A DNA stretch of 64,000 nt from Marsupella aquatica (Eukaryota; Plantae; Marchantiophyta). Position 1 is the first letter of the stretch; the number at the start of each line of letters is the position of its first letter. Of the stretch, positions 41,001 through 64,000 are shown piece after piece. The stretch covers positions 17,514,563-17,578,562 of the forward strand of contig OZ316894.1 in assembly GCA_973895155.1 (NCBI GenBank). Reading direction: 5' to 3'. Both the position numbers and the translations under genes were made by a program. The notes below the pieces were generated by a model. The model did no database searches. It saw only the letters and a list, made by a program, of their open reading frames with translations, and was not told where the DNA came from.

Positions 41001-41246
41001 ATCATGCTGGGAATATTGTCTCACATTCCTCAATGTTCTTACGGCACCATCAAACATCTGAAATCTAACAAATCCAAGTCCAACAACTTGACATGGGATT
41101 CAATTTCCCATCAACACTGACCCGTTGGAAACTGTTTAAGAACTGAAAAAATCTCTCCTAGAGCAAATGTGAAAAGTACATGCACTATCTAGAATCCAGT
41201 CATCACTACCTGGATTTGACACTACGTTGAGAGCATAACCTTGACA
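38027..41246 (-). pseudogene. pol: Copia pol (protease, integrase, RT, RNase H), broken by stops and frameshifts
   Basis: Domains are split over ORFs 40454-40765, 40172-40432, 39572-40042, 39107-39550, 38870-39100 and 38027-38716. The RT YVDD motif reads YVND. Confidence 0.9.
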
Positions 41247-42107
41247 TCACAATATGTCATCATCATCGAGTAAATCTACCTCATGCGAGCTCGATGCCGC
41301 GTTAGCAGATGCAGTAGGGACCTTTACTCGACAATCCCTTTTCATGTGACCAGGCTTGCCACAATTCCAACATGCAAGAGGCTTCCTCTCTTGCGATTTC
41401 CCTCTGGATTTAGATCTCCCCCGTGATGTAGATCTAAATCTGTTTAGCCCATTTGTGCGCTGCGCTGCTCTTCCCCCATTCACGTTCAGCGCAGTGCCAG
41501 AAGAAGATGCTGTCTGTGATTGATCCAGCTTCTTCTGAGCATCATCAGACAGTAAAGAGCTCATCACCTTATTATACGAAATGGACTTCAGATCTCTATA
41601 CAAGAGCACCTGTTTCAAGCCCTGATATGATGGCGGTAAGGAGCTTAGTAGAAGCAAGGCCTTATCCTCATCTTCAACTCCTTTTCCCAGGTTTGACAGA
41701 TCCACCGCTAGACTGTCAAACTCATCCAGGTGATCCTGCATCTTGCTCCCTTCTTTGAGCCTGAGGCTCATCAAGAGAGATTTCTTGTACAGCCGGTCTA
41801 ACGCATCTTCCCGGTAGTACTTCTCTCTTAGAGCCTTGAACAATGACACACAATTCGCATAATCATCCAGCTGTTTGATGATGTGCGGCTTGAGATATAG
41901 CATCACTGCATTGACAGCAATCACCTGCTCCTGTCTCCACTGCTTCTCTGAGATCTCCTCCTCTCCATCATACTGCTCTCGCAAAGAAAGCAGATGAGCT
42001 AAGCCCATGGCCCGTAGAACACCCTTCACTTGCTTCTCCCAGAGCAAGTAATCAGTACGACCATAGTACTTCTCCACTTCAAACTTCACTCCTCCAAATC
42101 TAGCCAT
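41247..42107 (-). CDS. gag: Copia Gag (UBN2-like region and CCHC zinc knuckle), open frame
   Basis: MARFGGVKFEVEK..., EDKALLLLSSLPPSY, CWNCGKPGHMKRDC. Confidence 0.88.
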   Translation of the reverse strand: MARFGGVKFEVEKYYGRTDYLLWEKQVKGVLRAMGLAHLLSLREQYDGEEEISEKQWRQEQVIAVNAVMLYLKPHIIKQLDDYANCVSLFKALREKYYREDALDRLYKKSLLMSLRLKEGSKMQDHLDEFDSLAVDLSNLGKGVEDEDKALLLLSSLPPSYQGLKQVLLYRDLKSISYNKVMSSLLSDDAQKKLDQSQTASSSGTALNVNGGRAAQRTNGLNRFRSTSRGRSKSRGKSQERKPLACWNCGKPGHMKRDCRVKVPTASANAASSSHEVDLLDDDDIL

Positions 42108-44144
42108 CTCCCTCTTCTTCCCTACCACCGACAGCTCTGGTAGTAGTACAGAGTCGCGGAACTCGACTACCTTAACACTTAGCTTCGGCGCCGCTGACTC
42201 CGACGCCGAGCTCCCTTATGGTCCAGGCTCGGATAGGCCATCCGGGGAGGACTTAGCATGGGGAGACTTGTGGGCAATGAGACGTGGCACTGGCGAGGCA
42301 AGGGGCCAAGCTGGGGACACAAACTAAGGACTTGGACTAGCCTATGGCTGGTCGGGTCAAGGGGAAATGGGCCGGGCTCAAGGATGGCCGTCTGGACCGT
42401 CGGATGGACTTTGAGTTCTGAGGGCTTTGGAGTGAGCTCCTCTTGGGCCCAAGGCCAATGGAGTTGACGCCATTGGCAACGGACGCTTGGGGTGCAAGTT
42501 GTGGCCTGATCCGGGTTGGGCCAGTCGGAGGCCCCGAGCGGCGATCAGACCTAAGGGCCTAGGCATGAGCACTGGGTCGGCCCAGTCACAACGGGCTAAG
42601 ACACTTCGCTTGCGGATGCCTATCAAGAAAGTTATGGGCATTGCCAGTTGGTGGCGCGCCCATTATGCGCGATGGGATCCGGGTTGGGGGCCAAATGTTT
42701 AGGGACCAAAGCTAGTCCGGGGGTGGCAGGTCTCCAGAAGCATATATGAGGGGAGTGGTGTCTCCCTGGGGGCTAAGGCCGAGCCGAAGTCGTGAGCCGC
42801 GGCGATCGCGACACTAAGGGAAATCGCCAAACGGAAATGATGATATCTTCCCAACGGGAAGTCCGTTGGAGGACTTCTTGGGTGCGTTGGAAAGCTCTTG
42901 AGGAGGGCTATGCCCTCTTGAGCTTAGATGGGTCCGGGGGTGCCATGGGTTCTCGTGGTTTGCGGATGTTAGCTCGCCCGCTTGCCAAATCCTGCCGAAC
43001 AGCAGCCAAGCCGCGTTCAGCCTCCCAAGGGAGCTTGCGTTGGGGAGGCAAGGCCAAGTAGGTATGGAGGCTGAGTCCCAAGGGCGCTCAGTCCCTAGAC
43101 CATTAGTGGGGCAAACCGAGTGCGGTTGTTAGAGTCGGGGCCGTTCTGGTCCCGGCGTGTGGAGACAAGCTTGGGACAAGTTTTAGGACAAGCTACGCTA
43201 TTTGGGCCATGAGCATGTCCTGAGGTCAGGGCGGTCAGTTGGTGATGGATAGGTACAAGGGGGAACCCGGGCCGCGCCCAAGGAAGGAGCTGTCCTGGAC
43301 GGACAGTGGGCGTGGGTTCTGGTTCCGGCTTATGGCATCGGGAGGACCTATCGTTGACCTATTTACCAACGTCTATTGAGCTTGAGTTAGGATGCTAGAC
43401 TGGGCGAGTTCTAGATCCGGAGGGGTTATGTACCGAGGTGCTTGGTTGTTTGTGCAGATAGTGAGGACCGTTGAGTAGCGGTCGAGTAGGTGAGCAAGTG
43501 CAAATTTGTATGGGCGTGGCCGCAGGTGGTGCTAGAGGCACTTGGATGCTTGCTCAAGGTATTCTGTGGAGGCATTCGGGCACCAAGGGCACTTAGGCGC
43601 AAGTGCTGGGATTGGTGAGGGCGCTGGGTGGCGAGGTCCACCACTTACAGCTTCCGCCATTGCACGCCGCACCGGTGATCATACCGGTGTTACTAGTTCT
43701 TCCTCAAACGGTAGCAGCTCCTCCTCAGACACTTTGTTTGACCGTCGCGATCCTGAAGCTCCATCGACGCCAATTCTTCCAATATCCTCCGAGTCACTCA
43801 TATGAAACAATCACGAAAAAACATCTTTTTTTGAAACTTCTCATAAAACTCAAAACTCAACACCGCCGCGTAGCCCACAAAGCTAGGAGTCCAATACTGA
43901 AAGCCGAAATCAAAATCAAAATTTGACGGAAAAGTTATTCAAATTTTTGTTGGGTGGGTAAAACCTTGGGAAACTCCCCCGTTTTGACCACCTCGGAGAA
44001 TAACCAAAATACCCAGTACAACCCGTCGTCGGAATCGCGATGTGATCGGTGCACCGCATTGCTAACTCCAGTGGCAACGTCCTCGCCAAAAAAGAACCAA
44101 AAAAGTTACCGTTCGGCGGACGGAATCTTTGTCGGACGGCCAAA

Positions 44145-44176: not shown

Positions 44177-47100
44177 TTCCCGCACAGTCCGATAGGTCTC
44201 ACAGGGGGCCGTTCCCCCTGTTGGAGCGGTTAAAATGGAGGGCGGCAGGTCCCTGCACGAAGGGAAAACAAGAGGAAGAAAAAATGGCTTAAAATAGGCC
44301 CTTAAAGGGGGTGCTAAGCTCCTTAAAACCAAAAATACAGGTATAAGACAAAAGGCGCATCCGCGTATAGGCGACACGAGGCGGGCCAGGGGGCGTACAG
44401 GGTATTGAGGCGGGGGCCAGGAGTAAAAAATACAGCCGCCAGGGCAGGCAGCCGGTGCCGCGAAGTAGCGAGCACCTGCAAGGGCGCGTGGGGCCAGGTA
44501 GGAGTCGCAACAGCCGGCCGGCAGTCGCGAGGGCGTTGAGAAGGGTCGGCAGCCAAAGGGCGACCGGAGGGGGAGTAAGGGGGGCACGGGGTATACACGG
44601 GGGCGCGTAAGGACCAGCTTCCGGGTGGCTGCTATTGCGCCGGCCGGCGCTGCGCAGGGCCGAGGCGTGAGTAAAATACGGGGTGCGAGGGGGGGGAACA
44701 ATCGGGGTCACGAGGGGGGCCGGGAACGAGGTGTGTGTATACACCTTGTGTGTGTATACACAAGGTGTATACACAAAAGGGGCCCCAAATAACCCCTTTA
44801 AAATGCCAAAACACTCCCCCGGGAAAAAAATGAAGAAAAGACTCACCTAATTGCCGCCAATTTAAGTGCGGATATGTGCGGATCCCCATTTTCAAGTCCT
44901 TTGGTCAGAGTCCTCCTCAAGGGCTGTCGATAACATTGTCAACAATTGGAATGCCACTGCAGTCATTCAATTTTTTTCCCTCAATGGGCTCGAAAGCTTG
45001 TCGTGGAAATCCTGGATCAGCTTTTAAGTTCTTTGCCACTAAAGATGGTCTAATGGACAATAATGCCAAGGTTATCCTATATACAAATATTCCATGTATT
45101 TTATATATAGTTCCTTTATTAAGTTTGTTGAACTGTCATCCTTCCAAATTATAAATTCAAATATCTTTAGTGGCAATGTGCTTTAGTTCCTTTATTATGT
45201 ATTTAACAATTATCCTTCCTAATTATAAATTCAAATATCTTTAGTGACAATGTGCTGAATCTTGTCATCCTTTTGAATTATAAATTCAAATATCTTTAGT
45301 GACAATGTGTTGAATCCTGGATTTCCAGGTTTCTCATGTGCTCAATTGTGTTTTTCCTAGCAAATTCTTGTCCAAGTTTCTCATGAGCTCAATTTTGCTC
45401 TTCCTAGCCATTTATAGAAGCGGAACTTTGGTTTCTGAATTGTCTTTTGAGATACTCGCATTCTCTCCTAGTACAAAACACAACTTCCTCCTCCTGACAA
45501 TGTAGTGTATTACATCTTGTTTACTTAAAAAACAATGTACACACTGATACATCAGTTTTTCACACAGAAATGCTTGGAATATTTCACCAAGTTACACAAA
45601 CACTACCTAAAGTTTTGTCCCTTGAAGTTTTCCGGAATACTTGCAGGACCCTGATTATTGTACAGACTGATACATCGGTATTTCACATAAAATGCTTGGA
45701 ACATTTACTGAGATATGCATTGTAAGTGGTTAACAAGTTTCACAAATACTCCCTACCGCTTTCTCATTTTACCACATTTTGCCCTGCTTAACTGAAATTT
45801 CCATAATAATTTTATATGATGCAGGAACCTGATCATCCCTAGTGTAGTCACCAACTACAATTGCTTCCACCCCAGCAGCAATCTTGAAGCATGTTTCTTG
45901 GAGCCTTATTTGTTAAAGTAATCAATGCTTCGCCTACATAAAGAAAACAGGAGAATATATTCTAGCCTCAAGTGCCTTATTCTCAAAGTAATGAATGTTT
46001 GTTTTGTATTTGTCAAAGAAGTTAATGCCTCCCAGAGGTCCTGCTCAAACCGGGATGACCCTACGGTTCTATATCATACAAGACTACAAGTCCACCAGCT
46101 ATTCTGGAGTTGTTGAGATGTTTAGCTTGAAGCAATTAAATTTTCTGCCCAAGGTTGAAGAGGTCAGCCAACAAGGTGACGAGTAATCTTCGTAGCCAGA
46201 GTGGCATCGGGAGTGGCATGACAATGGATATTATCGGTTGCTAAACGTGGTTAGCTGCAGTCCAGGCAGTGAGACATGGTTTACAAAAAGCCAAAGACAC
46301 TTAAGAGTTTCTCATGTACACAATTTGACGCAATTACATTTGTCTTGTAGTCTTTGTCGTTAAAGTAAATTCAGTTATCATCTAGGCCTTCTGTAAGACC
46401 AGCCGTCCTACAAATTCTAATTTTGGTTTCTCCCTCGGTCCTTATAAGCGCTAATTTGGTCCCTGCCTGATTGCACTCAAGAGACTTCAACCCACTCAGA
46501 GCCTATACCAAGCTAGAGAATGAGTTGCTCCAACTTAAGCAAAATTCCCCAAAGGATAGTTAAAAGTTTTTTAGGTCTATTATTGTATCTACATAATTTA
46601 AAAGAAAAAATTATGATGGCGTAAGAAGAAAGTAAAGTAACTTGTCATGTAGTGTTTCCAACTACAGTAGGAAAGATGCTAATGTAAAGAGCAATTCTTA
46701 ATTAATCATTCTTTTGGAGTTGAGATGAATTTTGTATTAACCACCTTAAAGCAAGAATAAATCACTTTTGGGGGACTTGGTATCTATGCCCTCTCTGCCC
46801 ACTGTCTTACAAAGTGTTGACCCCACTTTTGTTCCCATGTGTCATTTTATAATAGGCAACTGTTTATAATAGGCCCGTTTCAAAATAATTGGTGGGCCTC
46901 TCAGATTGATCTCATAATGACTTTAGTTAGCAATATGTATGTGACTCAAAACCATAAACTTGGGAACTCTGAGGAGCAGTTAAAAACCATTTTTTTCCTT
47001 CCGCTTCCTAGGTTTTGTGGAACCTTGCATGTGCCTCTTTTCAGAGTTTGTCCTTTTTAGGACCTCGTTTGCTTCCCTTGATAGTACTTTAGTTGTTCCA

Positions 47101-47811
47101 GTTTTTGGTTAAACCACACCTGCCCCTATAAAGGGCTACGGGTAACCCGTAGCTCTCATTCTAAGGAGTAGAAGTTCAGAAATGGGCTTTGAGCTCCACA
47201 AAAGATGCTGACTGCAAAATCTTTTTTTGGCAAGTACTAACTCCACAAAACATGCTAGTGTTCCACCTTTTATAGTGAGTAGTGAGACATGGAATGAAGC
47301 TTTTATAGTGGCAGAAAAGGGGTTGGCATTATCTTTGTAGCTTGTTCTCACACTACTTGGACTTTTCACCCTCTTGGGAAGAGATGGCTTGGGGTTTAGG
47401 TATCCTTGAATTGTGACCTATGAAATCTCAATTTAGTACAACTTGAATCTAAGGATCATACATATATTATATTCTAACAGAGGATGGGAAATATTTAAAA
47501 ACAAATATAAATTTAGAGGGGGTCACAAACGGGGTCACAAATTAAAAACTTTTTTTCAAAGGCAAATTGAAACAAATACATAATAAAAATTCTCAATAAT
47601 GCAAAGTAATGTGATTAGGTTCCCGGACAAGGTAACACTATTATGAACAAGTTCATCCTGAACTTTCTTGATTGTTTTGCCCTGTAGCAAATTGAAAGGA
47701 AAAATATTCTGCCGGTCCACCTCTGCCCATCTTTACCATGTGAAAGTAATAATGAACCCTATGAAACTCAGTATTATGTGACTACTAGCCCAATGCCCGT
47801 GCATTGCACAA

Positions 47812-48600
47812 AATATGTCAAGGTGAGAAAAGATATCGAGGTGAGAAAAAGATGCTGAGATGAGAAAAAGATGTCGCGGTGAGAAAAAATATGTTGAGGA
47901 GAGATAATGATATCAAAGTGAGAAAAAGGTGCAAGGAGAAAAAGATTTTGAGGTGAGAAAAAGATATCAAGGTGAGAAAAAGATGTCGATAAGAGAAAAA
48001 ACTTGTCGAGGTGAAAAAAAGAGGTCCAGGAGAGAAAAAGATTTGGAGGTGAGAAAAAGATGTCAAGCCAAGACAAAGATGTTGAGGAGAGAAAAAGATT
48101 TTGAGGTGAGTAAAAGATATTGAGGAAGAAAAAGATGTCAAGGCAAGACAAATATATTGATTGAGGTGAGAAAAGACAGGGAAAAAGATGTTCAGAAGAG
48201 AAAAAATGTTGAGGCCAAAAAGAGATGTCAAAGGAGGGCAAAGATATTGAATTAAAAAAAGATGTTGAGGCAAGAAAAAATATTGAGGCAAACAAAGATG
48301 TTAAGGCAAGAAAAGATGTCAAGATGCAAAAAGATGTTGAGGCAAGGCAAAAGTCAAGGTGAAGCAAGAAAATATGGGCTTTGCAAGGTATACATTGAGG
48401 CATGTGATCATGTGTCATTGCAGCCATGTCAAAGCAAGGCAAAATTGTTGAGGTGAGGCAAAGATGTTAAGGCAAGACAAAACTGTTAAGGCAAGTTTAG
48501 ACTGATGTTGAAGTGAGGCAAAAATGTTGAGGCATGCAAGACAAAAAAATGTCATCCGCCAAAGAAATGTAGACAATGCAAAGAAATGCAAGTAGGGCAA
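47812..48600. repeat. Degenerate purine-rich minisatellite (unit of about 18-20 bp, aaaagatgttgaggtgag)
   Basis: Dozens of variants of aaagatgtYgagg(t/c)(g/a)aga; absent from copy A. Confidence 0.85.
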
Positions 48601-50559
48601 GAAAGTTGTTTAAACATCTCAAATGTTATTGCGACCATGTTGTCATTGTTGTGATAGCTATGTTGTTGAGGAGAGCAAGAGAGGTGATGCCCCCCTGGGG
48701 CTTTGCAGGGTCAAGGTGTGGTTTGCACAATGGTATTGGGAGGGGAGCATTTTAATTTTTCTCTTCATCCCCTTTTCACTATTTCTTTGCTCCCTCGACA
48801 CTCCATTCCTCCCCTCTTTCTTACCTTAATTTGGCACCATCAAATAAACCAAAAAAATGCAAAATTAAATAAAGAGAAGAAAAAGGGAATTAAAAGCAAA
48901 ATTAATCCATTTTGCTTCTTTTTAAAGTTTCATAATTATACTCTTTGAAAAAATCCCAAAAGTTTGTCAGCCCCAAAAGTTTTTCCTATGTGTGTACTTT
49001 AATAAAAGAAAAAGCAACATTTAAAATGATTTCACATAAAATAGAATCATCACATTTTGGATGATGTTACATAGGACTAATGTTAAATGATGTCAAGTTT
49101 CTCCTTCCTATGTGTACTATAATAAAAGAAAAAGCAAAATTTAAAATGATGTCACATGAAATCACTTGAACCATCACATTTTGGATGATGTCACATAAGG
49201 TCGAAGCGTCACATTTTGGATGATGTCACATAAGACTAATGTCATGTACTGTGTATTCTACTATAATGCCAAGTATATCACTTGACAGTCCTGGTTAATC
49301 ACTCCAAGAGTACACAAAAAATTTAAAACAAATTTGACGGCTGAGGTTGATTCACTCCATTTTCAATTGTGTATGCAGACGAAAATAACTTTTTGGTTGC
49401 ATTGCATATTATAGAAGTGGACATGGCTAGTACACATGGCTAGTCCACTTCTATATGCAATGCAACCAAATATAATATGCAATGCAACTCCCCTTTTTAT
49501 AAGGCAAACTTTTAATTCCTTATAATGACTTAATTTATGCCAAATTGACCATGTGAAGTTTAATTCATTTTAGTCTACTAAACTCATGTACCAGCCTCTC
49601 AATTCAAAGAATCCAAATATGTACCTTACATAATTAAAACTAAAACTAAATTGTTTTGACTTGCCAGAACTTGTTAAAAACCAAATTATATGGGTTTTTT
49701 TTAATACAGGGTCTGCAGCCAAACTAGCCAGCTTTGTAGGATTTAAAAAATATTTTTAGTGAAAATTAATTACAGCAAGTTGAGAATTGTTTTGTAAACT
49801 TGTGTGGAAAACGAAGAAAAACCAAACTTGATGTATGACTCATAAAAATTTTAAAGTGAAAAAACTCAACTTTTTCCAATTTTTAATATTTATTATAGCC
49901 AACGTTTTAGTCCATATGAAAATATAGACTCTTGCCTATTATACAAGAGTTGCTTAAACAAGAGGTCATTCCATCATTCCACAAAGAGGCTGTTGGATTT
50001 AGGTTTTCATGGGTAAAACAATTATTACATAATGATGTCATTGCTCAAAAATTGTACTTTAATAAAGGTAAATTTTTGGAGAAAAGGTCACAATGTACAA
50101 AGTGAAGAGAAATATATGTACTGAATATTGAAAAGTGAAGAGAATATTACACATGGCTCTTCTTGGGGGTTTTCGTGGTGCCTTTTCTGTTATCTAGTCT
50201 CTTGCCTATGTGTTTCCCACTGTTTGTCCTGGTGGCTTTCCCTTTATTGGGTCTCTTGCGCGTGGGATTGTGCCTCCAGGATATATTGCCCTCCTTTTGT
50301 GTGGGTTCAGGTTGCCCCTCCTCTTGTGTGGGCTGGCTCTTTTTGTGTGGGTTCAAGATAACCCTGCTTTTGTGGGAATTCAAGATGACCCTGCTTTTGT
50401 GTGGATTCGTCCCTCTACTGTAGGATGGCTCTGCTTTTTCTTTTGGCTGTCTGATATGTATATATAGTCAGTCAGTTAGACACCTCACATTGGAGTTTGT
50501 CACATTGGAGGGTGAACACACTGCCTATTATTGCAGGTTTCTAGGGGACCTCCGCATAG

Positions 50560-52869
50560 ATGATGAGGTTGCTCCAGAGCTTTCAGAACTGCACTATGTC
50601 GATTTCTTCACCTCAGATGTCTTATTTGTGGAAGTCCATCCTGAAAGATAAATCCCACGTTCGCAGAGCGGCCTTGCTTGATGCAAGTGAATCAAGTACG
50701 ACAGAGTTCAGTGCTCAGGAAGCAGCTGTGAAGGTGAGTAACGCAAGATCAGCCGTTATTCGAGCAGCGACTTTCGAGAACCGAAGTCAGTTTAAAATGG
50801 AGAGAACACAGGAAGAAGTCATCACAGAAATCCAGTCCATGAAGGCACCGGAGTTCGTCCCTCCCTACCCATCAAGACAGAACCGTCATGCAGCAAAGGC
50901 CATCGGCAACAGTCTCACCTGGTTCGATCAGCAATCCTTGGCAACAGTCTTATCGGATCCTACAAAAATGCAGAAATTCATGCGGGGCAAGGTGAATGAT
51001 TTTTTCACAGGGATTTACGTGGATGCGGAGGAGCAAGAGATGTCATGGCTCTGCTGCTATGCCTTATGGGCGTTCTTGCTGGACGATTTGTTTGATGAAA
51101 ATATGTACGCTCGCTCACCAGACAAGGTGGCTCCCCTCTTATTGGAGCTGAACACGTTAATGATGTGGTCTTTCCCCGACGATCCTAGTCTTTACAGCAT
51201 CTTGTTGGAATTAGTAGACCTGTTTCCCGAGGAGCAACGAGAGACCATGCTTGACAACGTCGACACCAAGCTAGCCAACGCTAGACTACATCCTGGCTCA
51301 GGTGAAAAAATTAATGCTGCAACCAGCACCCCGCAAAATTCCATTTTCACGATTTCAAAACATCGATTTAGCCCTATGTACATGGTTGCCGAGATTCTGA
51401 ACGTCAGCTTGTCATTATTGTGGTTGCGGTATTTGTTTCAGTGAAGATAGAATATATGGAAGACATGCCCGCCTTCTGTTTTATACCCTGGTGCTGCATC
51501 TACAGTAACAGAATTTATCTCCTTTTCCGTCAATTTTTCTGTAGTAAATTTATTTGAATGCTGAAATTTGAAGACGTCGAGCCATGATATCAGTTTGGAT
51601 CATACTATGTACTTCAGATTTGACTTTACAAACTTATACCGTTCGAATACAGCTTATGATACTGCCCATCTCGGGCCGATGATAGTATCTTTCAAAGACC
51701 TGTGGGACAAGCTTTTGACAGCAACTCCTTCCGACTCTGTGATCCGATGGGGCAACTCAGTGCAGCGGTTTTTCTTGGGTAGCCTTCGCGAGACAATGAA
51801 CCGGAATCACAAGAACATTCCGTCTCTCGACGAGTACATTGTTATTCGTAGAGACACCTCGGCAGCGGAGTCGTGCATGGTAATTCACAGATATATCACT
51901 ACCGATATTAACGACACTGAATTTAACTCAAGAGCTTAAGTGCTTTGAATGATTTCAAAACTGAGAAGCCAACTGATGGTTACATAATTATACGTTCTCC
52001 GGGCCAGAGTCTGGCAATTATATATCCATCAGAAAACCATATTCAACCCTCTTCGTGGTTATCATTTACAGCTCTTGTTGAGGCTAGGAACGATTACTAC
52101 AGGCTGTATATATTAGGCAAGACTGAGTGAGGCAAATGTTATTTTTGTCATAAACGCAGTTGATAGTCGACTATGCGGCAAAATTCATTACCAGTTTGCC
52201 TAGGGAGATATTTGAAAGTCCTGAGATGAAATCGTTTCTGGCTGCTCTCAACGATATTCTTTCATGGCACAACGACATGTTTTCATTCAAGAAGGTAACT
52301 ATATTGCGCTGTATTCCACAAATTTTACTATTATATTTTGGTGGAAAACTCTGGAAAGCTAACATGCGTAGCCCCATAATACCATCCTCAATTATACTAT
52401 TTATTCTACAATATGAATAATGCCTCTCAACGGATAGATATATCATCAGTTTATGTTCTTGTCCGACGGATTCGCAACACTTTCTTAAGATGACACGGTG
52501 AGTCCTGAGCTGCAGTAAGTGGACACCGACGACTACGTAGGATAAACTCATATTTTAACTGTTACTTACAAACCCTGGGGGAACTAATTGTGGGCTGCAT
52601 GACTGTTGTGGCAGGAATTGGTAAATGGCGAAGTGCACAACTTGGTGTTTTTGGTCAGCCACGAGTCTAAGTGCTCGTTCTCAGAAGCTTTGGTGATTGT
52701 CCAGGGAATGCTTCAAGAACGAGTACAGGACTTGGACCGAGCCTTTCGTGATTTGGAGGCAATCTCAACGCAAGAAAATCAATGGGCTGCTGCCGCATAC
52801 ATTAAAACCGCACAATATTGCATTTCTGGGATACACGATTTCGAGCTGAGGAGTCAACGGTACCACTAG
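50560..52869 (+). CDS. Microbial terpene synthase-like protein (MTPSL), copy B, 452 aa; exons 50560-51301, 51653-51879, 52160-52294, 52615-52869
   Basis: Same exon lengths as copy A (742, 227, 135, 255 nt). DDLFDE, RRDTSAA, NDMFSFKKE and RY are intact. About 17 amino-acid differences from copy A by manual count. Confidence 0.92.
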
Positions 52870-53334
52870 ATGATTCATGTACAGTGTAGTCAGCTACAGT
52901 AGTTATTATATAAGTAAAACCTGGCAGTATTTCGTCAGTGCATTCTAGATCTTTTGCTTCTAGAGCTCGCCAAGGCCAAAATGTTTTATATATTGTACAT
53001 AGAAAACACTAGCGAGTGGTGAATCCATATAAGGGCCCTGCATGTGTGGTGCGGCTGCTCGAATCATTGAATCAAATCTATCTACTGTAGTTCCATAATA
53101 TTTAATGCTGCCAAAGAGTTCTTTTAGTCAAAAAGTTCGTTTCGTCTGCTTATAAAATTGAAAATGGAGGGAATCAACTCAAGCCTTCAGATTTCTTTAA
53201 AAAATTTGTGTACTCTTGGAGTGATTGACCAGGACTGTCAAGTGATATTCTCATTATAGTAGAATAGAGACTACATGACAATAGTCTTATATGACATCAT
53301 CCAAAATGTGATGACTTGACTTTATGTGACATCA

Positions 53335-54500
53335 CGTTGGTACATATTTCGGGTTTTTCCGATGCTCTGTTTTCGGTCGGCAACACTTTCCGATACAGAT
53401 CCGATCGGTATCCTCCGATTGTTTCTAAATCAGACATTTACCATACTTTTCACATCGGACAACTACTGTCCTGTTCTCTTACAATCGGACATACTATCCC
53501 ATTTAGAAACTATCAGAAAAGTTCCCATTCAACCTGCATCGGACAGTGAGACTGCCGCGAGGCAGGAGGCGTCCGATAATTATAAAAACGATATTGCATG
53601 GTGTTTCCAATGGAGTGAGGGCCTCATTCACAATTGGAGGACCCAAAAGGAACGTCACACTCAAAAGTGACCATAGTTTATTATGCTTTAGGATATCATT
53701 TTTAGGGTGTAATGAGATGATATAGAAAATTTGATGTACTATACTTAATAAACATCCTATAGGTTGGTAGTATTCATTAAACTATCTAGCATTTGAGACT
53801 TTGAAGCTTTCCTTATATGTCCTTCAAAGATTGATAAAAGGACTTGTCACGCAACGGGTCACATCATTTCAGGACTCAAAAGGACTCTAAAAAATGCATT
53901 TTAGACAATAAAATTTTACCAAAGCATGCATACTAATAGCATAATCTCATATTTCAAAACTTAAATAGTGACACACACTAAATCTTTATGTACAGGACAA
54001 AAATAATCAATAATTTTGGCTTATTTAGGGCCATCAATAACAGGATCCCTTAAAACAATTGAAAACTTGATGTATCTACATGGTGAGGTAGGTTACACCA
54101 TGTAAAATAGTCTTGTGAAAAAAAATAGACTTAAATGTCTTGAGATAAAATCAAGATGAACGTTTTTCCATGTTACAAAAGTCATTTTTCACTAAAAAAG
54201 CATATTTTTGAGTCCTGAAAGTGGTTCCTGCGAGGTACACCCAATTGTGAATGAGGCCTGAGGGACGAATGTTATCCGATATTGTTTATATTGGAAATGG
54301 GTTCCGACTTTCTTCTGAAAAAATTACACGTACAGACTTTGTGTCCGATGTGAGAAAAATGGCAAGAGTTCCCGATACGTGGAGTATGGCATATGAGTTC
54401 CATTTCTTATAATATCAAAAATCTGGGTTTTCAGTAGAGTAGGGGTTTTTCTAGAGGTTTATCATTTTTCTTGTAAGGCATGTTGTGTTTCCGATTGGTT
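53335..54500. mobile_element. Transposon terminal-region relic rich in tccgat/atcgga motifs, split by a MITE
   Basis: Dense tccga/tcgga motifs in both orientations at 53345-53580 and 54270-54495; similar motifs at 63700-64000. Confidence 0.45.
53619..54258. mobile_element. Tourist/PIF-like MITE, about 640 bp, TSD TGA
   Basis: TIR ggcctcattcacaattgg at 53620-53637 and its reverse complement at 54241-54258; tga at 53616-18 and 54259-61; AT-rich interior. The left end has one extra G. Confidence 0.82.
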
Positions 54501-55229
54501 TTTGATTCCATTCCATTTGAAGTATGTGGGAACCCCGTTAACACTAGTAGAAAATGGGGCCTTTTATGACTATGACACATATGACTGTTGTGCCCAAATG
54601 ACAATATATTTTAATGACAGGACATGAATGACACATAAATGACTGTCTATAATGACAGCCCGGTGAAAAAAATGACTAATAATTGCAATAGGGTCATTTA
54701 AACCAATGAGCCAAATGACCGTGACTACTATAATGACAACACCAATGAGTTGTAGTCATTTTGGACAATCTTTGTCAATGACAAAAATGACAATAACCTT
54801 GTCATATCAATGTTTGACATTTGGGAAGTCATTTAGGACAACGGTGACTAATGACTACTAAAACAAATATGGAAATATCAATGTTTAAAAATTTTAGTAG
54901 TCATTTAAACCTAAAGTGATAAATGACATGATAAACAATATATGACTATTTTGAGGTCTAGAGTTTTAGTATATGATTTAACTTTGTAGGGTATTATATA
55001 TTAGCTATCCAACACGCATGGTACTATAAAGACTAGGGGCACACACAAATTAGATTTTAAGTATATTTAGAGACTTAACAGATAACATTATCTGGTGTAG
55101 GTTTAGGGTTTAGGTGCTAGATGCCTGTATTTGCTATTGTCATTTTTCCAATTACGCGGACTGTTATTTGCAAAGAATTGTAAGTCATTTATGCTTTCAC
55201 TCAACTTTCTAGTCATTTGACAAGTGCCA

Positions 55230-56800
55230 CTAAATGACATGAAAACAAGTCATTTGGGATGTCAATGTTGTGGTCATGTATGTCATGCACAATATGACTC
55301 CTAAGGGCCTCCGGTGTCTGATTGGCCATAATGATGATAGGGGCCAACCATTAGGGATGCTACCCACTCCACATGGTGCGGGATGTAGAAGGCATAAACT
55401 CTGGGCCACTAGTTATCGGGATTTGGCCTCGCTATAGTTTTTATGACCCAACTTTTGCACCTTGAAAGGGCATCACCCAACTTTTGGCAAAACACTCACA
55501 AGTTGTATGACTTTGGAGTCATTTGCCCAAACAGTTGCAAACCACACTCATTTTGTCATTTGTAAAGGATTTTGGGTCATTTGTGCGTGTGAATGAATAT
55601 TTTTGTCATTTATGCAGTCTTTTGCACCTTTAAAACACACATTTTGCACCTTGGAAGAGCATCACCCAACTTTGGGCAAAACACTTCCAAGTTGTATGAC
55701 TTTGGAGTCATTTGCTTGAAGGGGTGCAAACCACTATTGCTTGGTCATTTGGAAAGGAATTAGAGTCATTTGTGCACGTGACTAAGGGTTTTTGTCATTT
55801 TTGCAGTGCCTGGAGACGTCATTTGTGCAAATGACACATAAATCAGTCATTCATGATGTCAATGTTGCAGTCATGCATGCCATGGGTAATATGACTTGTT
55901 TGGGCCTTCGGGGGCTGATTGGCAATATTTGTGATCGTAGCCGGCCATTAGGGATGCTATCCACTCCACATAGTGCGGGATAGGGTACTCTTGAACCTTG
56001 CGCCCGCCACTAGTTATGCCACTTTGCCTCCTAAAGGTTTTTTGTAGCCAACTTTTTGCATCTTGGAAGGGAATCACCCAACTTTGGGCAAAACACTCCC
56101 AAGTTGTATGACTTTGGAGTCATTTGCTTGAAGGGGTGCATACCACTCACATTTGGTCATTTGGAAAGGATTTAGAGTCATTTGTGCGCATGACTAAGGG
56201 TTTTTGTCATTTTGGGAGTACTGAGAGACGTCATTCGTGCAAATGACACAAAACTCAGTCATTCATGATGTCAATGTTGCAGTCATGCATGCCATGGGTA
56301 ATATGACTTGTTTGGGCCTTCCAGGGCTGATTGGCAATATTTGTGATCGTAGCCGGCCATTAGGGATGCTATCCACTCCACATGGTGCGGGATAGGGTAC
56401 TCTTCAACCCTCGACCACTAGTTATGACACTTTGTCTCCTAAAGGTTTTTTGTAGCCAACTTTTTGCACCAAGGAAGGGCACCGCCCAACTTTGGGCAAA
56501 ACACTCCCATGTTGTATGACTTAGGAGTCATTTACCTAAAGTGGTCCATATCACTCCCATTTGGTCATACCCAAGGGATTCCGAGTCATTTTGCAAGTGA
56601 GTGCACTTTTTGGTGAATTGTGGAGTCCTCTAATACGTCATTTATGCATTTGATATGAAAATGAGTCATTGTTGATGTCAATGCGGCAGTCACGCATGCC
56701 ATGGACAATATGACTCTTTGGGGGCTTGGATGTGGGATTGGTCAGATTGGTGATAGGAGCCCACCATTAAGGATACTACCCACAAAGAATGTATTGCATT
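55230..56800. repeat. About four tandem units of about 410 bp inside the CACTA left arm
   Basis: gatgtcaatg..g..gtca.g.atg.catg...aatatgact recurs at about 55258, 55855, 56267 and 56674; ccattagggatgcta.ccactccacat recurs in step. Confidence 0.85.
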
Positions 56801-59800
56801 TGGCTATTATGGAGTGCCGTGAGTTTAGGTTTTGGGCAATGACATCAAAACAAGTCATTTATGTTGTCAACCCTAGGACTGAGGACTATGAGATTAGTGA
56901 TTTAATATGTGAGTGACTAATTTTATGAGAATGTCCACCAAATGACTTCCTCACTTAGGTAATTGTGACCTGTCAATGAGGATGTACATCCTAAACCTAG
57001 ATGCATATGTTTGTAATTTGTTTTGTGTTACATGCATATACTATTTGGGAATTTTGGCACCTAGGTTTCCACATCAATGGGTTTCAAAGGCCACCAGTAC
57101 ATTAAGTTTTTGAGTCACTGGTTATTGTAAATGGTAATACATACTTGTGACAAGTATTTGTGTCATCAAAAAAGCATTTGGCCCCAAACTTCCTCCATCT
57201 CCTAAAATTGATTGGCGAGGGGATAATAATGTTAGAGGGGTATTATGGAACCTGGAGATTGACTCCATTACTACCCTCAACATCCCAGTAAAATTCCCGT
57301 TGGTGTCCCAAAGCCTTATTTGCCAACCATGTGTCATCCTGTCATGCCCTGGCCCTATCTTCCTTGGATCCCACGAAACAATGCCCGGCCACATTGGATC
57401 CCATTTTCCCATAAGAAATTCAGACCTGGGTTTAGGGTCGCCCGTTCAGTCACACCGGTCACACAAGTCACAAGTTCACGTTGGGAGTTAAGGTATTCTT
57501 GTGAAGTTGAGCAGCGACTGGAGGTGCGAGTCAGGTCACTGCTGCGAGTTGAGGTGCAAGGTCGCTGCTGAAGATCGGGGCTGAGTGGTGAGTTGAAGTG
57601 CAAGGTCGCTGCTGCGCGCAAGCTTGGTGCTGAGCAGTGAGTTGAGGTGCAAGGGCACTGCTGTGAGGTCGCTGCTACAAGGTTGTTGTGAGGTCATTGC
57701 TGTGAGGTCGCTGTGAGGTCACTGTTGTGTTTTAGGGCAAAGGAGTTGAGGTCCGCTGCGCCTATGTTTCTTGAAGGTCGTGCGTGCTGCTCCCCATCTT
57801 TTCAGTGTGGATGGAGTGTGGCTCGGTCTCTTGCGCTTAGTCTCTGCATTCCATCCGCAAGCCATTTGCGAGGTGGGACTGATCGGTGAGGACAGTGGGA
57901 TTGATTCGAAGCTGTGCACTGTGAATAGGGAGGCATTTGCGTTTGGGACTAGCTTTGGCCGTGGGTTGTCATTAGGGAAAAACCAGGTGAAAGGGAGCTC
58001 AAGCTGCGCGCACTTGGGCATTAATGCTAATCGTCCTGCATGTTGGAGCTGCAACGTGAACGAGAGTTCTGCTCTACGCCTTTGGCTAGAGCTACGGAGG
58101 GAGTTGTTGCAACACCACTGCCTTTACCTGCTACCATTTCATCCACGTCGAATACAACGCGTCTCTGAGGTATCTTGGATAGTTGTGCATTCTTTGTCCA
58201 CCTGCTGTGCTTCTTTCCCCTGCCGGCCATGCTTTGATTTCATGCTTCCTGTCCCCTTTGCCATGCTGCAAATTTAGCGCTTTTGCTTCCCCTTTGCTGG
58301 ATGCTGCCAGTTACAATCGTAAATTGAAGTTCTCCCTTTCCAATGCGCCTAGTATTAGTCCCAACCTCATTTGCCATTCAGTTATGTACATCAAGCTTGT
58401 GTAAGTGTGTCACTATTTCCGACCCCTGCCTAAATGTTCTACCTTGGGTACCTTGCTATGAGGTACTTTGTTGTCTCTCATTTCCGAGTCCTTGTTTGCT
58501 GGAATTTGCTCTTCAATCATGAAAAACAAAGATACCAGCATTTTGTACCAAACCTGAGCTGCTGGAATGTTATTGATCTCTGTAGGGTTGGGATTGTTGC
58601 TTTGTTGGCTTGGGATTCACAGTCCCTGTATAATGTTCACTGATTTGTTTCTGTCATTGTCTGGCCATGGTCCAAGTTTTGTCTTTTGGTATACTGCGCT
58701 TACTATGCAATGTCGTGCAGTATACTTGTTTCCTGCAAATTGAACATTGAGCCAATTGGAGGTGGACATTGGAGTTGCAACAACCTACAAGGTTAGTTGT
58801 GCTAATCTTGAATCCGTTGTAGTCAGCGCCCCCCTCCCTCACAAAAAGTTGCGGTCCTGTCTATCCCCGGTCTCTTTTGAATTGAAGACCAAGCTCTGTT
58901 TGACAACATCTAATTTCCTATGTAGCGGTAGGTCTCTGTTGCTTTTCCGACGGATTGCTTGCTCAAGCTTAGGGAAAGAATTGATATATTTGCCTTCTAT
59001 CCTACTCCTTCACCTGCAAGCATTGACTTTTTTTAATGTTTTTTCAAAGTAGCCACTAAATACTGTGTGACTACTAAGGTTTGCTCGCTGTGAGGAGATC
59101 CATGATAGTTTTGACTCTTCCCAAATCTTACCTATGTTGGAACCACATTGGACATACATATCTACAGACACTAGTTGTTGCCGAGGTGCGATTGGAGCTG
59201 CATTCCTGCTTGCATTTCCGCTTGCATCAATTTTGAGGATTCTAAGGAAGATTGGACCTCTGTTTGGTAGTGGTGCTACCTAACAAGGGTCCAGTGGAGG
59301 TGGGCTTGCTCCAGTTTTGCTTGCATTATTGTCGTGTGTCTATTGTCATTATTGGTTTGTTGTTGAGATTATCTGAGAAACCCCCATTGTCTTGAGAAGA
59401 GATGCTGGGAGTGATTTGTAGGATGTGTTTGAATTGCAAACTTTTTCGGATTAATTTTTGCTATTCAAAATTACCTTGTCTGTCTGTTGATCCCATCAAA
59501 TATAATATGTCTTTGTTGATCCATCACTGAAAAAAGCCCGACTCTACATGGAGTTAAATGAACCAAAGTAAGAGTTGTTGCTGAGGTTCTACCTGAGCCA
59601 CTGCATTGAGCCATGTTTGCTCTTCTACTCGTATTTTTTTTGTTTCTCAACACCTCTAATAGAAATCGAGTACATAGGAATTTAGAGGCAGCATTGGTAA
59701 TTCCTTGATTGATCACTACACTTACCAAGTATGCTTATATTGTTGCTCTCTGCGCAGAACACATAAACCGGAGCCAAGTTATTTTTTACATTGCTTCTAC

Positions 59801-59962
59801 TCCGTGAGACTGAGTTGGGCAGGACATCTTTTGACGTGTACTTAAACCTCAGATTACGGTAAGTACACTACGCATACCATCTTTGTACTTGTTTGTTGCC
59901 CTTCTCCAAAGACTTCTTGTAATATTTAAGGTAATTAAGCAGATCCACACATCACATCAGGC

Positions 59963-60660
59963 ATGGCACGGGCTGCTGCTGCCTGGCTGGATCCAAAGTT
60001 TGCCCATAAAGAGCACCTTCGCATGGATCCCCTTGTTGTTTTGAATGTGATGAGGGAGGTACTGTTTTGTTCTGCGATGGGCCTTGCAGTTGTCATTTCC
60101 ATTACTTAGTTGCTGGGCAGGATCCCGAGGAGCCTGATGGCCATGGGTCTGAGTGCACACGCATTGCCATTTCTAAAGGGCATGATTGGGCCAAGGAGTG
60201 GCTCTATGAACTCTGCCAACAGAACCGAGGTCGTTGCTTTGCTTGTGGACTACTTGGCCGAACCCTAAAGCTCACTATAGATGAGCCCCTTGTGGTTCAA
60301 TGTGCACAAGATGATTGCTTTTCTTTCTATCACGTGGATTGTCTGCGGACCATACTGAGGGCAAGGGAGTTGCCTCTCTTGGGGTATGCAGAGAACTTAG
60401 ATGCACATCCCGCTGCTCTGATATGCCCAAGGCATTATTGTGATGTTTGCAAGGAGTATCGGGATGGCATCTAGGAATTTATCCAGTGTCGTAGGTGCCC
60501 TCGTGCGTGGTGCAGGGATGAGGGACCAGAGGCAAACAAACACCTCAAGAGAGGGGTGAAGGGTAGAGAAACGTGGGATATTGGACCATGGCGTATGGTG
60601 TACTGCAATCGCCATGTCATTCCAGAGGGTTCTGAGGTGCCACCACATGATTTCAAATAG
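59963..60660 (+). pseudogene. EDM2/NSD-type composite PHD finger protein carried by the CACTA element; one frameshift and one in-frame stop
   Basis: Reconstructed: MARAAAAWLDPKFAHKEHLRMDP/(shift in cccc near 60030)/CCFECDEGGTVLFCDGPCSCHFH...CFACGLLG...CAQDDCFSFYHVDC...CPRHYCDVC...GI*EFIQCRRCPRAW...RETWD...YCNRHVI. The Cys/His spacing follows the EDM2 PHD1-3 region as recalled. Confidence 0.75.
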
Positions 60661-60849
60661 ATCCTAATTAAGCCTTCAGTTGTGTAGAAAACACTGCATA
60701 GTACAAAGTATACTGAACTTAAAATGGGCTAAGGACTTATGGAAGTATACTAGACATAAAAAAATGGACTAACTTAGGGGCACAGTGGAGCACCTGAGTT
60801 TTTGGTTGGATGAAAATGGAGTACTGTGTCAAGTTGGATTCAATGCCAG

Positions 60850-61010
60850 ACTAAGCTGAATTGGACTAAAGTTATAGGATGATTGTATGAAATGGACTAA
60901 ATTGTTTGATTGTATGAAAAGGACTGAATTGTCTGATTGTATGAAGTGGACTACACTGTCTAATGGACTAAACTCAAATGGACTAAACTGTGTGATTGTA
61001 TGAAATAGTT
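60850..61010. repeat. Short tandem repeats (tgattgtatgaaatggactaaa-like) between CACTA ORFs
   Basis: Four copies of gattgtatgaa with interleaved ggactaaa. Confidence 0.7.
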
Positions 61011-61087
61011 GAATGCTAAATTGTTACATGAAATTCATTGAAGCGTTTGGGTTGGATAAGCTATTGCTTCTTGTATTTGTTACAGTG

Positions 61088-61534
61088 ATGCCAAGGACGC
61101 GCAGCAGCTTGGGAGCTGACCTTGAAGGTAGAGCTAAGAGGCTACGCCTGAAGCTGAGTGGAATGAGGTTGGTCCCTGCCAGTTCTGCTGTGCAATGGGA
61201 GTTTTCGCCTGTAAATAGAGACACGTACAGTCGGCCCATTACTCTGCATGCTCCACCCTTGCCCATAGGTTTTTGTATTGTGGCAGTTGATAATGGAGAG
61301 GTACAACCAGAGCAGATATGCTACTCTGCCTGTATCCACAGTTGTGAGGATTTTTGCCCAAAATGTCGAGTGCGTCCAGGGGATATATATAGGCGGGATG
61401 GATACAATAGGCTGCAGAGGAGGTGTGCCTGTATAATGTTCCACCATGATGAGCTAGTCTTGGGACCAGGGGTTGAGACTGTTTGCCCTAGAGTAGAGCA
61501 ACACTTCGTGGAGAAAGACCAGTATCAATTTTGA
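61088..61534 (+). CDS. Unknown Cys/His-rich protein (148 aa) within the CACTA element
   Basis: ATG lies 2 nt after acceptor ttacag. Basic N-terminus (RAKRLRLK); CYSACIHSCEDFCPKC...CACIMFHH...C; open frame. Confidence 0.5.
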   Translation: MPRTRSSLGADLEGRAKRLRLKLSGMRLVPASSAVQWEFSPVNRDTYSRPITLHAPPLPIGFCIVAVDNGEVQPEQICYSACIHSCEDFCPKCRVRPGDIYRRDGYNRLQRRCACIMFHHDELVLGPGVETVCPRVEQHFVEKDQYQF

Positions 61535-62508
61535 TTGTATGATGACTGTTAAAAGTGTCAGTGGCAAACATGTGAAGAGCCTGAATGGAGATACATAACA
61601 AAAAAACTAAAAAACATCACACTGACCTGAGCAAGACCTAAAATCCACCCAAGGTCTTAAAAATTTTGTTGTCCCTTTTCAGGGATCTGGCCATAAGAAG
61701 GCAAACTTCACTTAATGTCTTTCAAGTATTGTAGTATTGCCTTTCTAAACCCACAGCCTTAAGAACGCTCTCAACCCGGGTCTCTGAACTTTCTCAAACT
61801 TTCTCATTTTTGATAATTTTGAAGACTGAGTGTGTATTTCATTCTTACTACTGCACAAAAACACTATATATGCTTAATTAAATATGTACATTACATGAAA
61901 CCCTTCTGGAATCTATTCTAGTACCTGCCCACAACAAACTGCCTTGATGAAGAGGATCATTTCAACAAATGAATTCAAAAGACAAAGAATGAAGGAGGGG
62001 ATTGTTGGACATTATGATTAATGTTTGTTATTGTACTCACTGTTTTGAAGGGTCCGAGATTGCTGACTACTGTGAACACCCTTGCCCTAAATCTGGTTGA
62101 GGTAGGCCTTTATTTGGTTTTGTAAACTTTTGTCATTTTGATTTGTACAATTCAGGTCTCCTTCAAATACCCAATGCCACTTACAATATGAAATGAGATT
62201 AGGTAACGTACCCCAAGTAAATAATTTCTGACCAAGTTGCTAATATGTCATCTGTTTACCTGTTGTTGGCATGCATGAACTATTCTATTGGCAAACGGGG
62301 CTAAAGTGGGAGCTGCCTTTACCTCAGTTGGAGTCCAGTACCTCAAATGTATGTCTAATTCTTCACTTGTGCATACATTTGCTTCACATGACGCTCTAGA
62401 AGATGGTATGGAAGGGTTTTGGAGTTGTCTAGAACAATTCATATGCTCTGCAAGATGTCAAAGAAGAAAGATGTGCAACTGTGTTTTTGATTAGGTAGTG
62501 CTGCAATC

Positions 62509-62970
62509 ATGGCTTCTTCTAGCCAGGTTGGGTCACATAACACTGCATATACAACAGAGGCAGACAACCTGAGAAGTTTACCTCTTTCCCATCCACGTCA
62601 AATACAGCGTCGTGATGATAACTTATGGGCTCGGGAACAGACAACTTGCTCTGGTAGTGCTGATCATAGAATGTATTGCTCTTGCATGGAATGCAAAGGG
62701 ATTGTTAAGACTACTCGAAAGACCAGTCGACAACATCTTCTTAAATATGGCCGCTACCCTGCCTGTCGAGTGTGGGTAGGAGAGGGTGAAGACTCTTTTG
62801 ATGAGGAGTGGAGATCCAATTACATCCGTAACTCTGGTCCAGAGGCACTGAGGGCAGGAATGTCTCGAGAGGCATTCCACTCAGGCCAGCCATCAATAGA
62901 TGTTGAAGAGCAGGTCAGAGTTTTACTTCAGGAGACATTGGCAAGAGCTTCTAAAGAGTCTGACGAATAT
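62509..62970 (+). pseudogene. 5' part of CACTA TnpD/Tnp2 transposase (transposase-associated domain), interrupted by a nested CACTA
   Basis: MYCSCMECKG...RQHLLKYGRYPACRVWVGEGE matches the C-C-x2-C...HL---G---Y--W--HGE pattern at the N-terminus of En/Spm transposases. Confidence 0.75.
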
Positions 62971-64000
62971 CACTACAACACTACCTACACCTTTTGCAAA
63001 CTTGAAAGCATCGCAAACAACAAAGGAAATCGAAAAACAAAACTCGCCTTTGTGAAGTATCGCGCATCGCAATAGAATCGCGAACTGCAAAGCCCAAAGG
63101 TTCGCATCCGGTCTTTTGCAAGACCTTCGCAAGCCCTTTGCAACTTGCGACACGAATAGAATCGCAAAGGACTCACATTTAAGCAACTCCATGGGCATCG
63201 CGATAGGCTTGCGATAATAATCGATCAGTTCCATATTTGCGATTCCACGAGTTTGGTAATATTTTTGCGATATTCAATGAATGGTTGTTATGCCATGAAG
63301 ATCGCTTCGCATTTGTGTGAAGTTATGTGGTTCGCATAATGTTTGCGATACCTTTAGTATGGTAAATATGCGATTTGGGTTGTTCGCATATGTTTTGCAA
63401 GCTGTCTTGAGGCTAGGATTTAGATTTAGAGTTTTGAACTATGGTTGGGGTCTTGTTGTCCAACACGGAGAATGAGGTCTGAATCAAAATTGCTTTATAG
63501 AAAATTGATAGGTACACAGAAATTAGGGTTTCCTAAACCCTAAACCCTAGATGGGTGTCATATGACAAGCTAGGTCCCTATAAGACTACCCATATCAAAA
63601 CTATATACTACACTAAGTAAATGGGCATCCCATGGGCACTACACCACCAAGCTCTAGCACTAGTACATTTTGAGGCATTTTACCGATTGTATTTCCATCG
63701 GACGCCTTCTAGAAATCCGACGCGGAAATCTCACCTGTCTGATACCAAAAAGAATCGCATTTTCCGATATACTTTTTATCGGAAAATGACAATCGGAAAC
63801 TAATCAGAACTACCGATACCAAAACATTCGGGAGTTCCATCGTCTAAACTGTCGGGAAACACTATGTCCGATGCCCGCTTAATCGGATGTCTGTTCCACG
63901 CATTTTCTGTTAATGGAGGCGTTCGATTCTAGACCGATATTCTGGACATGGAAATGCCCGATTGTTTTAACATCGGAATTGTCCGATGTTATTTGGAACG
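62971..64000 (+). mobile_element. Second CACTA element nested in the first; right end not seen
   Basis: CACTACAACA at 62971 followed by dense tcgcaa/ttgcga subterminal motifs up to about 63400; abrupt compositional switch within the transposase ORF. Confidence 0.78.

Follow-up and report, generated by a model that had tools for sequence, protein, structure and literature searches.

A broken triple-PHD gene near the left end of a CACTA-like element

The window (the whole stretch of 64,000 nucleotides from Marsupella aquatica analysed here) carries at 59963-60660 a decayed copy of an EDM2/NSD-type triple-PHD gene, which has suffered a one-base loss, an internal TAG and a Cys-to-Tyr exchange and lies behind the left end of a CACTA-like element. 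The features of this locus are as follows.

54542..54554, +: left end of the CACTA-like element, with the sequence CACTAGTAGAAAA (sequence; contig break)
54542..57100, no strand: subterminal repeats, ATGAC/GTCAT in both orientations and repeats of about 190/410 bp, families D3, D4 and D8 (motif counts, repeat search)
57100..59962, +: T-rich leader, probably non-coding and with introns (AT skew -0.21; no tblastn match to the N-termini of host paralogues)
59963..60660, +: intronless but broken ORF for three EDM2-type PHD fingers, about 232 aa (translation, Pfam, BLASTP, homologues)
60028..60031, +: frameshift, the window copy being one C short in a run (sister depth; homologues read MDPPCC)
60037..60216, +: finger 1, C4-H-C3, with the seventh ligand changed to Tyr in the window copy only, codon 60205-60207 (ligand table, sisters)
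60235..60435, +: finger 2, PHD_NSD (PF22908), 8 of 8 ligands kept (Pfam, ligand table)
60439..60615, +: finger 3, PHDvar-like, containing the TAG at 60472-60474 (Pfam, ligand table, sisters)
61088..61534, +: second accessory ORF (ORF2), 148 aa, with a Cys/His-rich C-terminal half (one homologue, no Pfam family)
62509..62970, +: N-terminus of a probable CACTA transposase with the transposase-associated zinc domain (PF13963)
62971..63657, +: nested element starting with CACTAC, with ATCGC/GCGAT repeats, in or just behind the first exon of the transposase (sequence; contigs)
63658..64000, +: first part of another, third element, CACTAGTAC, with ATCGGA repeats (sequence)

As judged from the six-frame translation, the ATG at 59963 opens frame +2 (MARAAA...EHLRMDP), and the zinc motifs continue in frame +1 (CCFECDEGG...CDGPC..FH, CFACGLLG, C....C..FYH..C, CPRH, CDVC, CRRCPRAW, WD and YC..H.I), which is interrupted by the TAG and ends with the stop codon at 60658-60660. 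With one base restored, the gene comprises 233 codons for 232 amino acids and needs no intron, in agreement with an earlier note on this DNA, which had described an intronless triple-PHD frame of about 230 residues after one frameshift repair and read-through of the TAG. The product, with X read at the TAG, matches the Pfam family PHD_NSD at an E value of 3.8e-9, above the family cut-off, and shows a second, weak match to PHDvar_NSD. BLASTP aligns it with residues 225-428 of Arabidopsis EDM2 (P0166) at 29% identity over 224 columns (pairwise E 5e-19), and the three tandem NSD-type fingers with the ligand spacing of EDM2 identify it as an EDM2-family PHD module, as the note had recognised. A phmmer search of P0001 against the PDB yielded no match at E values up to 1. 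The match to EDM2 seen in the note needs correcting for finger 3, which retains 6 of 8 EDM2 ligands and in all three family members has exchanged a His for a Cys and lost the following Cys.

The element resembles those of the CACTA/EnSpm group in having a terminus starting with CACTA and short subterminal repeats in direct and inverted orientation. Between 54542 and 57100 there are 32 ATGAC and 35 GTCAT motifs (shuffle maxima of 8), which amounts to 12.5 and 13.7 per kb versus 0.9 and 1.3 per kb upstream in the window. A contig of sequencing run X3 matches from 54541 on, whereas its remaining 29 letters differ from the window. The leader contains a candidate splice acceptor (CAG, 59940-59942) 20 bases before the ATG. 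ORF2 has no Pfam match, and its sole homologue is P0180 (57% identity over 99% of the length, E 4.7e-49); its atlas look-alikes are unnamed clusters of low recognition and were set aside. The putative transposase is represented by the PF13963 Transpos_assoc match at 62491-63072, which scores 25.4 bits (E 1.6e-5), below the curated cut-off of 27.7, and is the only part inside the window, where the catalytic core does not occur. A contig of run X2 matches up to 62970 and then shows 70 unlike letters, and a contig of run X6 also stops at 62970; a possible splice donor is found near 62914, so the insertion at 62971 may be intronic. The repeat-rich stretch at 53335-54541, just to the left of the CACTA end, contains TCCGAT motifs, which recur in reversed form after 63658; with such motifs on both sides, the PHD element may have inserted into one that was already there.

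The position of the PHD gene inside a CACTA element, as claimed in the note, is supported on the left by the end at 54542, the ORF lying between this end and the transposase start at 62509; the right end lies beyond the window. With the right end and the target duplication located there, the linkage of ORF and element rests on one copy and on matching depth: relative to the upstream interior, summed contig depth rises at the PHD and transposase bins by factors of 8.9 and 12 in run X1, 4.0 and 3.9 in X2, 5.9 and 16 in X3, and 15 and 21 in X6. These similar rises fit, without proving it, that both genes travel together; no contig spans both.

Intact homologues, sister copies and selection

A search among proteins of similar length returned 3 matches from 32 candidates, namely P0003 (247 aa, 68% identity, from a cluster of three members), P0004 (226 aa, 56%) and a 128-aa piece; the intact stand-alone homologues of the PHD ORF comprise 211-247 aa. 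The start and stop sites of P0003, P0004 and the window ORF coincide. All three lesions are absent from the homologues: both read MDPPCC across the frameshift position, both have an aromatic residue in place of the TAG (W in P0003, Y in P0004), and both keep Cys at the position of the Tyr in the window copy (WLCE in P0003, WFCE in P0004). In spite of only 56-68% identity, P0003 and P0004 retain 22 of the 24 zinc-ligand positions, including all 16 of fingers 1 and 2, which are complete in the intact family members. Finger 1 shows the pattern C-x2-C-D-[ED]-G-G-x-x-x-x-C-D, which is common to the transposon family, EDM2, NSD and AIRE PHD1, whereas the residues preceding the first Cys are MDPPCC in the transposon family versus FFESVC in EDM2. 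The C-terminal H-x-x-F-P motif, kept in some form in 12 of 12 aligned host proteins, is absent from the transposon family. Two metagenome scans with 201 and 29 pattern matches yielded no confirmed match and no genomic context for P0003-P0007.

The profile of the family matches residues 608-803 of NSD2 (E 7e-22) and PHD1-3 of NSD3 (E 7e-21), and weakly AIRE PHD1. A structural model of P0003 predicted from 55 sequences (pLDDT 73, pTM 0.72) has its top fold match in the PHD5-C5HCH tandem of NSD2/NSD3 (Foldseek E 7e-4, Z 7.6, rmsd 3.4, 93 aligned residues), and the tandem PHD of Ehd3 follows with Z 6.0 and rmsd 4.2 over 107 residues. As all Z-scores remain below 8, they possibly reflect just a common arrangement, and a shared fold does not show function. 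Many of the structural matches of finger 1 are H3-bound fingers. Searches of the PDB gave no structure of the EDM2 PHD module itself.

The region is partly present in seven sequencing runs from four coded organisms, none of which contains at least half of the window's words; the best one reaches 0.36, so the sisters may come from other species. No RNA run is listed among the seven, which is not informative on expression. Positions 54400-63100 were compared with four of the seven runs (30 of 30 bins covered in X1-X3, 29 of 30 in X6). On 741 bases of the ORF lie 383 contigs of X3, 80 of X2, 14 of X6 and one of X7, with up to 24 contigs at a single variant site; the summed contig depth given below does not equal copy number. 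The extra C behind 60028 is present in 1690 of 2019 (X1), 243 of 376 (X2) and 8176 of 9828 (X3) depth units and is not shown in X6 and X7. A G at 60473, which removes the TAG, accounts for 324 of 446 (X2), 43530 of 48771 (X3) and 29.4 of 29.4 (X6) units, and a G at 60206, which keeps the Cys, for 513 of 798, 16516 of 17819 and 27.6 of 27.6 units in the same runs. Each lesion is therefore absent from most of the sister depth, which together with the unbroken P0003 and P0004 supports the expectation of the note that intact copies may exist.

Silent and replacing changes were counted from 40 of 63 differences, without a formal dN/dS. Among the 26 differences segregating between sisters, about half of which come from one divergent X6 contig, 18 are silent and 8 replacing, and 22 lie at third positions; at an expected silent share of 0.22-0.30, this is an excess (binomial p 3e-6 at 0.25 and 4e-5 at 0.30). 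The 14 changes private to the window copy, defined by a difference from the whole of X6 and from 85% or more of X3 in a split chosen after seeing the data, include 2 silent and 12 replacing ones (Fisher p 0.002 versus the segregating set). C>T or G>A exchanges make up 10 of these 14, and 7 of the 10 fall in CG or CHG contexts compared with a background of 0.26 (p 0.005); the TAG and TAT lesions are both in CHG context. The predominance of silent changes among sisters and of replacing changes in the window copy indicates a family under purifying selection and a dead, methylated copy in the window, which has decayed through its methylated cytosines, as the note had supposed from the lesions. As far as sequence comparison can tell, the CACTA-like family is likely to keep the PHD protein under selection, and a recent passive capture of the gene is unlikely.

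Relationship to EDM2 and its short liverwort paralogues

A family-profile search over 1.84 billion representatives gave 219 matches at E values up to 0.001. The best ones outside the transposon family (E 4e-28 to 1e-21) are short EDM2 paralogues of Marchantia polymorpha (MPTK1_1g03210 and MPTK1_4g03050), M. paleacea, Riccia sorocarpa and Calypogeia fissa (P0008-P0012, P0014), which consist of 280-768 aa and carry the PHD module at the C-terminus, without a methyltransferase-like motif. Full-length EDM2 also exists in the same liverworts (P0015, P0017), and named EDM2 and EDM2-like proteins are among the 150 best matches of the family profile. A SET-like motif occurs in none of the 148 matches listed; the nearest relatives are EDM2-like and not SET-bearing NSD/ASHR3 proteins. 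The PHD assignment on which the note depended is thus upheld by the Pfam and profile matches, with EDM2-like proteins as the relatives. The motif DPPxC before finger 1 was found in 10 of 127 proteins, every one of them a member of the transposon family or a short form. The identity between the PHD ORF and every host paralogue found, all from other species, amounts to about 30%.

A quick tree with 81 of 123 rows and careful trees with 28 author-chosen rows were calculated. The transposon family forms one clade (100/100) with a stem of 2.4-4.6 changes per column versus 0.2-0.55 inside, and three trees join it to the short forms and separate both from the full-length proteins (support for this split 93 SH-aLRT; 94/96; 90/86). 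Placement beside host EDM2, a point raised by the note, is thereby obtained with the short liverwort paralogues, but AU tests leave descent from full-length EDM2 unrejected, be it that of liverworts (p 0.096), of the seed-plant type (p 0.19) or of all land plants (p 0.12). A short liverwort EDM2 paralogue is accordingly the favoured donor, at a level that the statistics do not settle. P0038 appears as sister to the transposon family (96/92), and P0135, P0140, P0164 and P0165 constitute a second long-branched clade of short EDM2-type proteins (100/99).

The N-terminal RFD and C-terminal methyltransferase-like ELP parts of EDM2 gave no tblastn match in the window, and with intact homologues of just 211-247 aa the PHD ORF does not qualify as a full EDM2 orthologue. 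The note had proposed that the transposon took the reader module without the methyltransferase-like domain; the domain is indeed absent, but as the short liverwort paralogues also lack it, it was probably lost in the host before capture. Partly spliced fragments of Arabidopsis EDM2 stop matching at residues 273, 303, 384 and 414, which we read as introns of the PHD region, and their apparent presence there next to an intronless transposon ORF suggests capture through mRNA. The capture would have happened long ago, probably via a spliced mRNA, with all parts except the fingers being lost.

Further short EDM2-type PHD proteins occur in environmental or run assemblies (P0038, P0135, P0140, P0141, P0149, P0164, P0165 and P0028). 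P0012, the 280-aa product of Marchantia MPTK1_4g03050, is nearly a stand-alone PHD-module gene and has a long branch. No functional study of the short liverwort EDM2 paralogues was found in the open literature; the present finding points to these apparently unstudied proteins.

Possible roles of the PHD protein and other features of the window

EDM2 belongs to the AAE complex, binds H3K9me2 and contains an ELP domain besides two and a half PHDs (PMC7472560, PMC3632883, PMC7529245, PMC10241880, PMC4980392, PMC9910501, PMC4788410); reviews describe its PHDs as binding H3K9me2 and other marks (PMC7472560, PMC4980392). The transposon protein shares with Arabidopsis EDM2 (1297 aa), a member of the ASI1-AIPP1-EDM2 complex, the composite PHD module and, in its intact forms, 22 of 24 ligand positions, and differs in lacking the DNMT1-RFD and methyltransferase-like domains, in being intronless, multi-copy and located in a transposon, and in its altered finger 3. 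With the short liverwort paralogues it has in common the DPPxC motif, the C-terminal module and the lack of a methyltransferase-like motif; unlike it, these possess an N-terminal region (RFD-like by eye, no Pfam call), 24 of 24 ligands and the terminal H-x-x-F-P. The PHD1-3 regions of NSD1/2/3 resemble it by the Pfam PHD_NSD assignment and the profile match to NSD2, but the transposon protein contains no SET, PWWP or other domains. Given the 29% identity to EDM2, the altered finger 3 and the exchange of FFESVC for MDPPCC, the mark specificity of EDM2 need not carry over.

Accessory genes of DNA transposons tied to chromatin control are known from VANC and KIU of VANDAL and TnpA of Spm. VANC and TnpA are motif-directed anti-silencers (PMC13317346; 10.64898/2026.08.24.746577), and KIU carries a captured host domain (PMC13317346). 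VANC, KIU and TnpA act via sequence motifs of their own families; in the PHD protein, Pfam recognised no domain for binding DNA, and homology to these factors was not detected. TnpA-like regulators are apparently restricted to flowering plants (10.64898/2026.08.24.746577), so that in liverwort elements other accessory proteins could have a place. Chromatin modules reported in other transposons include a PHD in the Gag-Pol of Chlamydomonas Gypsy-7a, SET in oomycete HarbingerS/MuDR and TET/JBP in fungal EnSpm and others (10.1101/2022.06.16.496473, PMC12730594); each of these is either an enzyme or a lone PHD within a polyprotein, in contrast to the free-standing three-finger EDM2-lineage module in a land-plant CACTA. 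No report of a transposon-borne EDM2/NSD-type PHD module was found in the open papers covered.

By its sequence relationships, the PHD gene derives from the EDM2 lineage and has been retained by a CACTA-like family as an accessory gene, in a putative role. The reading which we hold to be the best, at somewhat less than an even chance, is that of a kept triple-finger gene in a CACTA end, likely descended from a short paralogue, whose product would be an adaptor that reads histone tails on behalf of proteins encoded by the element. At the subterminal repeats, the PHD protein would attach to the ORF2 product or to the transposase, and finger 1 (and 2) would engage the H3 tail; either the chromatin of the element itself would stay open to transcription and excision, or the complex would be biased towards one chromatin class at insertion. 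As neither a catalytic part nor one recognised as binding DNA is present in the protein, it could benefit its own family specifically only through a partner; selection within the family is most readily understood if this advantage depends on other proteins of the same family. Beyond a conserved gene inside a CACTA end, we infer every step of this scheme. A complex prediction of P0003 (residues 30-247) with the ORF2 product of the window, run without alignments, gave scores of 0.00 and 0.00 but no verdict and is not counted as evidence.

Rather unlikely, in our estimate, is a role as anti-silencing decoy, in which the unattached reader, independently of the transposase, would blunt silencing by covering tails with H3K9 methylation (or a related mark) or by sequestering a partner of the host short paralogues. 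The reader-only architecture would suit this, and there is a precedent in the captured nxf2 fragment that TART reportedly carries and directs at the piRNA machinery. A decoy lacking sequence specificity would, however, help all transposons alike and thus create weaker selection on one family, and about 30% identity to each host paralogue found is low for a mimic. The repression of the DNA transposon Mu1 by EDM2 in Arabidopsis is in favour of the decoy, but EDM2 affects Mu1 and COPIA4 in opposite directions, making the sign of a decoy effect ambiguous (PMC3632883). The very long stem branch of the family, the ligand changes in finger 3 and the loss of H-x-x-F-P would also be expected if the fingers had ceased to read histones and now served the life cycle of the element as a scaffold, stabilised by zinc, that binds proteins or nucleic acids; this appears improbable, as finger 1 keeps the pattern of EDM2, NSD and AIRE PHD1 and many of its fold matches are H3-bound.

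Two further alternatives concern the gene itself. That the conserved ORF is not a stand-alone CACTA gene, but belongs to a longer spliced product as its final exon or to another element nested at about 59.9 kb, is considered quite improbable. The candidate acceptor before the ATG would permit an in-frame upstream exon, depth steps up at about 59.9 kb, and the locus is a nest of insertions with its right end beyond the window; on the other hand, the ATG position is common to three family members, a motif scan and repeat search revealed no further CACTA-type terminus and no long inverted repeat within 54542-62971, there is no upstream coding match to host paralogues, and no longer forms of the ORF were present among 155 candidates, which is weak evidence. 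Passive Pack-CACTA-style capture of host exons followed by neutral drift is very improbable and largely refuted: CACTAs are known to take up host DNA (PMC13317346) and the window copy itself is decaying, but frames have stayed open and ligands were kept at 56-68% identity, and silent changes are in excess among sisters. The single-copy cassette, near-identical to host EDM2 and evolving neutrally, which the note had named as the contrary case, is not what was found, since the gene is multi-copy and constrained, and its closest host relatives, which come from other species, are only about 30% identical.

A bolder extension of the adaptor reading, possible but doubtful, would be that liverwort CACTAs without TnpA took a host EDM2-lineage heterochromatin reader and kept it across species, freeing their own silenced copies for transcription or mobilisation, and that P0038, P0135, P0140, P0164, P0165 and P0028 represent further captures. 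If kept under selection, the gene would offer a histone-mark route to counter-silencing, unlike the DNA-motif route of VANC and TnpA, in a liverwort setting where transposon chromatin differs from that of flowering plants; in Marchantia, H3K27me3 is found on many transposons (10.1101/2022.10.24.513474). Being small and foldable, the intact 230-aa proteins may substitute for the EDM2 PHD module, and Marchantia is available as a transformable host.

The remainder of the window holds several unrelated features. A segmental duplication of about 8 kb (16153-23233 and 44872-52994, blocks 84-94% identical) contains two microbial-type terpene synthase genes with weak matches to pentalenene synthase (Terpene_syn_C_2, E 1e-13), and a purine-rich 19-bp tandem array occupies 47810-48495 in the second block. 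Such terpene synthase genes, like the nearest relatives of the PHD ORF, point to a liverwort as the probable host. Only the second terpene synthase copy is surrounded by 210-bp inverted repeat arms (49186-49395 and 53129-53334, 85%), which could be a Pack-MULE-like arrangement, although no target duplication was established. A convergent two-gene Harbinger-like element is located at 24182-25228 (+) and 25996-27276 (-), in which an open frame of 426 aa matches DDE_Tnp_4 (E 1.6e-27) and the partner ORF encodes 348 aa. A multi-exon PGAP1-type host gene extends from about 6098 to 15056 (+; one exon at E 3.4e-8), and remnants of a Copia-type LTR retrotransposon lie at about 38027-42215 (-), with gag and zinc knuckle recognised by Pfam and pol-like frames by eye.
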